Source: Shigella phage vB_SflM_004
Length of the DNA stretch: 64,000 nt
Direction: 5' to 3' (one strand)
Sequence record: MK295205
Shown piece by piece: positions 50,744 through 51,340 of the stretch. The position numbers and the translations under genes are program-made. Below the pieces are notes generated by a model. It did not search any database. It saw nothing but the letters and a program-made list of their open reading frames with translations, and had not been told where the DNA came from. The stretch's first letter is position 1. The number at the start of each line of letters is the position of its first letter.

Positions 50744-51340
50744 GTGGAGCTAAATGCTATGAAACTGTTAAATATCAAAATCACTGGTACTCGTCCTTTT
50801 CTGAGCCATGCAGATACTCTGTCAGACCCATTAAACCCTCTGACAAAATATCACAAGTCTCTGTCAAGTAAACGTAAAAAGACTGACGAAGACTATGCTC
50901 TCTTAGCAGAAAGCCAACTGGTAACTTCTTGTTACTATGATGAGCAACTAGGTTTAGGTTTGAAGAGTGAGACGCTTGTAACTGGCACTGGTGCAAAACT
51001 CAACAAACTTGGTAAGGTAATTGACCGAGCCATTATGCTGACAGATGTAGTCTTCCCAATGACTATTAAGAACTGTCCAGCAAACCCACAAGAACTAGCT
51101 AAGAACCAAGACTTTATCTATGCGAAGTCTGTTAAGATTGGCACAGCACGAGTCATGAGCTACCGTCCAATCTTCCGTGACTGGTCTGTAGAATTTGGTT
51201 TGATGTTCGATGAAGAACAAATTACCAAAGAGGAACTCTTGATGGTTCTTGAAAATGCTGGTAACCTTTGTGGTGTAGGTGATTGGCGTCCACGCTTTGG
51301 TCGTTTCTCTGTAGAAGTTATTTCAGAAGGTAATGTTTAA
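50744..51340 (+). CDS. hypothetical protein
   Basis: 198-aa ORF; contains a 36-nt stretch identical to the 3-prime end of the DNA polymerase gene (encoding [12 protein letters not shown]). Confidence 0.45.

Follow-up and report, generated by a model that had tools for sequence, protein, structure and literature searches.

The second copy of a 36-nt polymerase segment in the record of Shigella phage vB_SflM_004 as a very probable artefact of a chimeric sequence

The record of Shigella phage vB_SflM_004 (MK295205), of which a stretch of 64,000 nt was analysed as a whole (hereafter, the window), presents a 36-nt segment of the DNA polymerase gene a second time, inside an unrelated open reading frame (ORF). 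This second copy is very probably a computational artefact of a chimeric record arising from an alignment-type merge, and not a feature of the phage DNA. Irrespective of the step involved, the artefactual nature of the duplication can be held with even greater confidence, while the step that we infer to be responsible is the merging of scaffolds from a mixed lysate, or the derivation of their consensus, by an alignment-type procedure. The initial annotation had ascribed the repeat to illegitimate recombination, template switching or a relic of homing or repair, none of which was borne out, as the 36-mer turned out to be one tile in a colinear series of more than 40. The duplication is real in the record text, while a discrete biological copying event is not supported. 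The whole window consists of Felix O1-like (Ounavirinae) phage sequence, and at least three Ounavirinae sequences appear to be combined in the record, namely a Felixounavirus (positions 1-47393), the tail of its scaffold with two alternative HNH endonuclease alleles, and a Mooglevirus-like genome (from 47394).

The two copies and the genes that carry them

The 36-mer (TTTAGGTTTGAAGAGTGAGACGCTTGTAACTGGCAC) was present in exactly two copies, both on the + strand (47306-47341 and 50953-50988), when the window was searched for exact matches and with up to three mismatches, and no third copy was detected in the window even with three mismatches. Thus, the two exact copies previously described were recovered, although the position then given for the second one (50947-50982) has to be shifted 6 nt rightward. 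Its recurrence expected by chance was 0 in 100 dinucleotide-preserving shuffles, in line with the claim that chance identity is negligible. If one mismatch is allowed, the match between the copies is 40 nt long (47306-47345 vs. 50953-50992), and both copies are translated in the same frame into the same 11-residue peptide, with L before it and G after it. Microhomology, which had been proposed for inspection, was found on both flanks of the second copy, with an overlap of TTT at the left junction and of C at the right one, the latter followed by one mismatch and then by GGT. An alignment block that ends on matched bases has the same appearance.

The native copy lies within the last 75 nt of a polymerase gene that, judging from its sequence, appears to be intact and natural. 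The Pfam DNA_pol_A match on its product reaches residue 906, and it is 97.4% identical to the polymerase of Felixounavirus LMP25, with 68 of the 71 differences located at third codon positions. The native 36-nt segment was 100% identical in LMP25 and in three IMG/VR loci (L004-L006), while AYO145A and dune have the same peptide at the homologous position of the polymerase with 8-9 mostly synonymous nucleotide differences. The conservation of both peptide and position in the polymerases of these relatives identifies the polymerase copy as native, as initially proposed. More generally, positions 1-47393 of the window were 96-98% identical to LMP25, with an ORF coverage of 0.9-1.0 at 14-46 kb. 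Furthermore, two tandem copies about 95% identical to each other over a stretch of 1.4-1.8 kb (835-2658 and 2672-4087) were found, which look like two alleles set in series.

The recipient ORF comprises 193 aa when read from the ATG of the orthologue type (50759), or 198 aa from a GTG at 50744. In this ORF, the 36 nt of the 36-mer appear in place of 42 native nt (FVMNGEMIEACIKS), the native 42-nt allele sequence including GGTTTTGTTATGAACGGTGAGATGATTGAGGCTTGTATCAAGTCTGGT. The orthologues of KPS64, AYO145A, dune and Moogle present this different 42-nt segment at the site, the proteins being otherwise about 99% identical, and the segment was kept in 12 of 12 close orthologues. The block G-P-Y-L-P-x-x-N-I-E-A, conserved in distant homologues, is overwritten in the recipient ORF, and all 40 listed full-length matches (of 117 records, with at least 80% query coverage) span 227 nt vs. 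221 nt in the window. A search of the ORF protein against a set of 5.8 billion proteins returned 256 homologues at E ≤ 0.001, the best 120 of which were listed. Within these best 120 of 256, KSETLVTG occurred only in vBSflM004_069 itself, after which the next best matches had 195 aa and 92% identity. The orthologue comparison suggested by the initial annotation therefore found that, among the best 120 of 256 homologues, the peptide is not native to the family of the recipient ORF. Since the orthologues present FVMNGEMIEACIKS instead and no listed homologue has the peptide, the copy in this ORF appears to be secondary, foreign and derived from a polymerase 3′ end. Moreover, the 221-nt chimeric allele was absent from the INPHARED records, the 47-nt junction pattern had 0 matches in IMG/VR, the JGI metagenomes and the GTDB genomes, and the 2 kb around the second copy matched neither genomes nor plasmids of E. 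coli. The reading frame stays open by chance, with 36 nt taking the place of 42.

Table 1. Positions of the genes, copies and tiles in the window
Feature	Position	Strand	Description
Family-A DNA polymerase gene	44649-47378	+	909 aa, Felixounavirus type; Pfam DNA_pol_A and phrog_17 matches
Native 36-mer copy	47306-47341	+	encodes part of the conserved polymerase C-terminus
Switch point	47389-47393	+	ATGAT (start of the HNH endonuclease gene in relatives); last bases colinear with endonuclease-carrying Felixounavirus relatives
Tile stream 1	47549-50313	+	5′ 450 nt of the L006/LMP25-type HNH endonuclease gene (MITEIRLKELL...); 12 ordered, abutting tiles
Stream 1 tiles, first half	47549-67, 48268-99, 48455-75, 48540-74, 48779-804, 49397-508	+	
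Stream 1 tiles, second half	49534-73, 49620-35, 49930-68, 50110-54, 50205-26, 50277-313	+	
Tile stream 2	50650-61587	+	second polymerase 3′ end, complete L004-type HNH endonuclease gene (MRDCGFTHEQL...), about 400 nt downstream
Stream 2 tile	50682-50695	+	CAGGCATCTAAGAA; equals polymerase 47292-47305; source 172-185, immediately before the 36-mer tile
Recipient ORF	50759-51340	+	phrog_4652, function unknown; phrog match; protein vBSflM004_069, 100% protein identity over 193 aa
Second 36-mer copy, stream 2 tile	50953-50988	+	equals polymerase 47306-47341; L004 source positions 186-221
Stream 2 tile	52173-52185	+	CAGGTAAGGTTGG; equals polymerase 47341-47353; source 221-233
Stream 2 tile	53329-53355	+	TAAGAGCTGGTATGAGGTACATTGATG; polymerase stop region; source 234-260
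Stream 2 tile	53462-53474	+	source 261-273
Stream 2 tile	53669-53682	+	source 274-287
Last stream 2 tile	61569-61587	+	source 1161-1179
Tile stream 3	61586-63859	+	continuation of stream 1; L006-type endonuclease 3′ end and downstream genes; source 724-1350

Ordered tiles over a Moogle-like backbone

Apart from the second 36-mer copy, positions 47549-63859 contain at least 40 other short, dispersed stretches that match the same source segment exactly. The sources of these tiles were taken from relatives with an HNH gene after the polymerase gene, namely LMP25 and the three IMG/VR contigs sharing the 36-mer, and the tiles fall into three streams (Table 1). Stream 1 follows right behind the intact polymerase gene, where it overlies the ligase gene as well as small genes; it covers 98% of 451 source bases, while the reversed-source controls gave 0 tiles. 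Stream 2, to which the second 36-mer copy belongs, comprises about 40 ordered and abutting tiles across 10.9 kb of Moogle-like backbone, in which 1,038 of the 1,040 bases from positions 161-1180 of the L004 source were placed, 997 of them being identical. A total of 29 of these tiles were at least 13 nt long and covered 86% of the source, compared with 0 tiles for reversed or shuffled sources. The source segment of about 1 kb is contiguous and intact in a related IMG/VR contig. Stream 3 is almost contiguous between 62130 and 62588, amid the tail-gene region.

When the tiles of stream 2 were re-joined, the polymerase C-terminus was obtained, followed by an intact HNH endonuclease ORF of 170 aa (499 of 513 nt identical to L004), while streams 1 and 3 together yielded an endonuclease gene of 174 aa (510 of 525 nt identical to L006). 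Neither rebuilt ORF shows decay. No contiguous endonuclease gene was found within 47394-64000, and the L004-type gene was not contiguous anywhere in the window. The tile of the polymerase stop region was identical to L004 at 27 of 27 positions vs. 24 of 27 for the corresponding bases of the window's own polymerase gene (47354-47380). This better fit shows that another genome, and not the window's own polymerase gene, is the donor of the series containing the 36-mer.

The change of background takes place at the switch point, where LMP25, Alf5 and other matches (98-100% identity) all stop at position 47393 and exact matches end. From 47383 the window aligns to Moogle and KPS64, and the backbone is Moogle-like from 47394 onward, this right part being 90-97% identical to Mooglevirus Moogle, with 95.7% identity for the backbone between tiles. 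No database record exceeded 97.2% identity to the stretch 50989-52172, which rules out a fill-in of the backbone copied from a GenBank reference genome and indicates that the backbone right of 47393 derives from a real, unsequenced Mooglevirus.

In the alignment to Moogle, the tiles overwrite the backbone instead of being inserted into it. The lengths of replaced sequence and tile are about equal (20/20, 15/15, 17/17, 18/18, 31/31, 40/40, 68/68 and 52/52), with 36 nt for 42 at the second copy, and the mean in-register identity between tiles and the Moogle sequence that they replace was 53%. Moreover, the sites occupied by the tiles had a median rank in the top 0.66% of the 15.8 kb of backbone, and the site of the 36-mer ranked 1 of 15,765 backbone positions, with 23 of 36 in-register matches. 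To re-enact the placement, the L004 source was aligned globally with the restored backbone, using plain affine gap penalties and 10 parameter sets, 8 of which put the 36-mer exactly at the observed site. At most 5 of the 19 tiles, amounting to 165 of the 557 bases, were recovered in this way, compared with 0 bases for five shuffled controls, while other simple global alignments reproduced 3-6 of 37 tile positions. No pointer repeats were found at the junctions inspected (those of the second copy and of the tiles aligned to Moogle), where the overlaps were of a few bases.

Genes in the right part are extensively broken. Those for dihydrofolate reductase (DHFR), thymidylate synthase, the tail fibre and the baseplate wedge, together with Moogle genes 48, 49, 50, 69 and 70, are split across frames. 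Compared with Moogle, the ligase is devoid of its first 98 residues, the remainder being 55% identical, and the baseplate gene is 40% covered. Moogle genes 61, 62 and 64-66, including that of the tape measure, had no match in the window, and only a 25-aa remnant of gene 63 was found. The ORF coverage was 0.5-0.7 at 48-64 kb vs. 0.84-1.0 in the equivalent Moogle region. Positions 53000-64000 span 17.8 kb of Moogle, and around 61460-62624 the window lacks some 7 kb of the tail genes found in Moogle, 55 nt of backbone (62239-62293) being all that is left there. Furthermore, no tRNA genes were found in the window. Essential genes are thus broken without general decay of the sequence, as seen from the backbone, 95.7% identical to Moogle, and from the intact rebuilt endonucleases, and the record text, as written, is not that of a viable genome.

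Origin of the tile series

The published description of vB_SflM_004 (85,887 bp, sequenced by Illumina HiSeq at 4,115x and assembled with SOAPdenovo v2.04 under default settings) reports several oddities (Front Microbiol 2021;12:619323, PMC7925395). These are 0 tRNAs, where relatives have about 20, two rIIA/rIIB pairs, a deletion of about 10 kb, lysis genes resembling those of Felixounavirus, Mooglevirus and Suspvirus, and tail and capsid proteins with at most 55% identity to known ones (PMC7925395). All of them fit a chimeric assembly of a mixed lysate. Two sources were also found in the window itself, with Felixounavirus sequence on the left, Moogle-like sequence on the right and two endonuclease alleles.

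The tiles are colinear, abut at their source boundaries, overwrite equal lengths of backbone and occupy sites optimised for similarity, a combination which argues for a global alignment followed by a base-wise merge. We know of no replication or repair process that yields all four properties together. According to this explanation, the library would have been a mixture of a Mooglevirus with one or two strains of Felixounavirus that differed in the endonuclease allele 3′ of the polymerase gene. A Felixounavirus scaffold would have stopped some 2 kb beyond the polymerase gene and carried the two endonuclease alleles in tandem, so that along the window the first allele would run up to source position 722, followed by the second allele (source 161-1180) and again by the first from 724. 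This tail of about 2.1 kb would then have been stretched over about 16.5 kb of Moogle-like scaffold, much as a short sequence becomes scattered along a long, non-homologous one in an affine-gap global alignment. The aligned bases of the tail would have overwritten the backbone columns, the backbone being retained elsewhere, and the 36-mer fragment would have landed in ORF 50759-51340 because this was the backbone site that matched it best. The record shows every testable feature of a chimeric, alignment-merged sequence, the tiles having the properties expected of an aligner and the re-enactment returning the 36-mer site in 8 of 10 parameter sets, though only 5 of 19 tiles. However, a pure overlay merge fails to account for the roughly 7 kb of tail genes missing around 61460-62624.

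A single genuine event, in which a break or a stalled fork in the recipient ORF was repaired with 36 nt copied, after priming by microhomology, from the 3′ end of the polymerase gene, is highly improbable. It would agree with the short junction overlaps (TTT and C), with an ORF that stays open after an in-frame change from 42 to 36 nt, and with the position of the polymerase 3′ end beside the insertion site of homing endonucleases in relatives; in addition, the replaced native segment resembles the donor at 23 of 36 positions in register, which could favour homeologous priming. However, about 40 abutting tiles, of which the patch is one, run through 11 kb in the strict order of their common source, and the neighbouring tiles belong to a polymerase/endonuclease allele that is absent from the window's own polymerase locus. 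Most of the other tiles break essential genes, and the patch itself overwrites a conserved block of its protein family and appeared in no other genome searched (INPHARED, IMG/VR, JGI metagenomes, GTDB and the best 120 of 256 homologues).

An equally improbable origin for the series as a whole would be a genuine but defective hybrid, in which break repair started by a homing endonuclease during co-infection by a Felixounavirus and a Mooglevirus proceeded through dozens of template switches that interleaved both genomes. Both parents were evidently in the sample, the switch starts exactly at the endonuclease insertion site (47393), and serial template switching would yield colinear pieces of both templates. 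Nothing, though, would make a template-switching polymerase pass over a length of backbone equal to that just copied from the donor, pick the donor up again about 40 times precisely where it had left off, or select sites whose ungapped similarity places them in the top 1% of 15.8 kb. Moreover, such a hybrid would be without a tape measure and without a working baseplate, ligase and thymidylate synthase, yet the phage was plaque-forming and sequenced at 4,115x (PMC7925395). If the record did represent a real Felixounavirus x Mooglevirus hybrid, with two homing-endonuclease genes dispersed as more than 50 ordered and abutting pieces through 16 kb of the other parent's genome, which is the least credible of the possibilities, dozens of similarity-guided template switches during break repair would have given a phage 'gene in pieces'.

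An artefact generated inside the SOAPdenovo pipeline from a mixed-strain library, through graph simplification at K=23, scaffolding with contigs down to K+2 and gap filling, is unlikely, though it deserves more weight than any of the biological routes. Version 2.04 with default settings is the sole assembly step that the authors describe (PMC7925395). Mixed-strain scaffolding typically leaves alleles in tandem, as seen here in the pair of endonuclease types and in the stretches at 835-2658 and 2672-4087. Nevertheless, the pieces overlap at their junctions by 1-3 nt, far below K-1 = 22, and the spread of the 1-kb source over 11 kb exceeds, in our judgement, the usual paired-end insert sizes. 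Furthermore, the backbone on either side of a tile would belong to one continuous contig, and a dynamic-programming alignment reproduces the similarity-optimised sites at which the tiles lie.

Two other candidates were discarded. A machine-generated or synthetic sequence was dropped, as the protein matches a GenBank phage with an associated paper and the synonymous divergence of the polymerase is natural. Single-stranded fragments annealing at similar sites would lack the colinearity and single orientation of the tiles, and a complementarity of 50-65% is too weak for stable pairing.

Relation to known systems and consequences of the record

The closest likeness of an alignment-merged record is with chimeric assemblies from mixed lysates, with which it shares the presence of two or more genera, two alleles of one locus, tandem allelic duplicates, frameshifted or missing essential genes, missing tRNAs, a duplicated rII pair and junctions found nowhere else. 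However, the usual chimeric assemblies show strain hopping at the k-mer level, while here a 1-kb segment became about 40 ordered tiles over 11 kb, which is unusually extreme and speaks for a global-alignment merge instead. Template switching of the MMBIR/FoSTeS type and templated patches also leave a short ectopic copy with overlaps of 1-3 nt in which a similar length is replaced. In contrast to the one or few events of those processes, with a donor in the same or a nearby molecule, more than 40 colinear and abutting tiles from a foreign donor allele were observed here; thus, instead of a discrete event with a donor in the same genome, the second copy belongs to a 40-tile series and adjoins a tile of L004 type.

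Intronless homing involves free-standing HNH genes and the co-conversion of flanking markers, as in the mob and seg genes of T-even phages. The source of the series resembles such a situation, being a polymerase 3′ end followed by a free-standing HNH gene at a site that two unrelated alleles occupy. Homing, however, moves a gene as one block into a homologous site, while here the gene is scattered through non-homologous genes kilobases away: the recipient ORF, 3.6 kb away from the polymerase gene, is not related to it, and the endonuclease genes are not contiguous. The scrambled genes of ciliates offer a further parallel, as a complete ORF is rebuilt from ordered pieces split by other DNA. They differ in having pointer repeats and eliminated DNA, whereas here no pointers were seen and the intervening DNA consists of phage genes damaged by the tiles. 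We know of no phage process that would rejoin such gene pieces.

MK295205 is listed as a complete genome in GenBank and nr, which makes the finding a matter of data quality, since chimeric proteins such as vBSflM004_069 enter protein clusters as well as comparative and taxonomic analyses. It also calls for caution, as an improbable in-frame repeat with microhomology beside a hotspot of homing endonucleases resembles a repair scar and may be an artefact. Similar records can be screened by asking whether the neighbours of a repeat in its source recur downstream, ordered and abutting. The 36-mer duplication as such has no biological importance. In Felixounaviruses, the polymerase gene is commonly followed directly by a free-standing HNH endonuclease gene, with at least two unrelated alleles at the site, and the polymerase 3′-end allele of the window is of the type linked to endonuclease-carrying genomes. 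Most likely, the real phage carries an ordinary protein of 195 aa and an intact HNH endonuclease gene directly 3′ of its polymerase gene.

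Duplicated, stray and missing segments

At the left end of the window, two copies of one stretch were found in tandem, both corresponding to the same part of the Felixounavirus relative LMP25. They look like two strain alleles set in series, and are an additional sign of mixed-strain assembly. Moreover, the region 4200-6000, in which no ORF of at least 80 aa was present, harboured exact 24-nt copies (e.g. 5304-5327 and 5431-5454) of baseplate-wedge (window 59860-59883, positions 39752-39775 in the Mooglevirus relative Moogle) and ligase (49736-49759) segments, which may be more stray merge fragments. 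The DNA ligase gene itself was broken and lacked its N-terminal ~98 aa, its remainder (55% identity to the Moogle ligase) being interleaved with endonuclease tiles, the short ordered pieces that overwrite the Moogle-like backbone; a 25-nt ligase fragment appeared inside an endonuclease-derived stretch.

Furthermore, the region 61460-62624 lacked ~7 kb of baseplate and tape-measure genes equivalent to those of Moogle. The sole backbone remnant there was 55 nt long and was surrounded by an almost uninterrupted copy, of Felixounavirus type, of those genes which usually come after the endonuclease gene. A simple overlay, in which a Felixounavirus tail was stretched by alignment over a Moogle-like scaffold, does not explain this. 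As for tRNA genes, none was detected by ARAGORN in the whole window (1-64000), and zero tRNAs are given for the entire 85.9-kb vB_SflM_004 record (PMC7925395); LMP25 and Moogle present ~20 each, clustered near the terminase gene.

Coordinates of the features in the window and their main properties
Feature	Window	Strand	Properties
Tandem copies of one 1.4-1.8 kb stretch	835-2658; 2672-4087		~95% mutual identity; LMP25 counterpart of both, 87537-87714 plus 1-1458
HNH endonuclease ORF	37268-37774	-	intact; 168 aa; MLTQQTLKEYLHYDPETGVFTW...
Polymerase 3′-end allele	47180-47393		
Broken DNA ligase gene	48889-50241		
Ligase fragment	49509-49533		25 nt
GGTNN repeat arrays	50389-50680; 51812-51960; 51975-52240		pentamer-periodic
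Backbone remnant	62239-62293		55 nt; Moogle 45037-45091

Repeat families

The GGTNN arrays border the gene pair phrog_4652/phrog_5926, and every one of them is preceded by the conserved motif CTTTTTAAAAGGTCTTTAA(A/T)(C/-)AGGGTCTTTTAAT(A/G)AGG. Such arrays are likewise found in Moogle, and a 'repeat_region' is annotated at the equivalent position in phage dune; those beside this gene pair seem natural. Between the small early genes at 6250-13430, an intergenic repeat family with members of 20-75 nt recurs, such as GAATCTCC(A/T)GTTTAGGA...TTTATTTAGTGGGG and GTAAAGCTCTTTATCTGGGGCTTACTTTATCGAACTATAAGCCCC. These repeats are probably cassettes of promoters and terminators, as is typical of this group of phages.

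Endonuclease genes and the polymerase 3′ end

The intact HNH endonuclease ORF belongs, as a third paralogue, to the family of the two shredded alleles. Lying between an exonuclease-like gene and its neighbour, in a stretch of ~490 nt that is inserted relative to LMP25, it appears natural and not shredded. A single insertion point after the polymerase gene was common to at least two unrelated endonuclease alleles (compared loci L001, L003 and L008). The polymerase 3′ end at this point showed 98-100% identity solely to genomes with an endonuclease gene at the site, compared with 74-77% across the last 200 nt in the endonuclease-free AYO145A. The allele looks like a co-conversion tract that would move together with the endonuclease gene.
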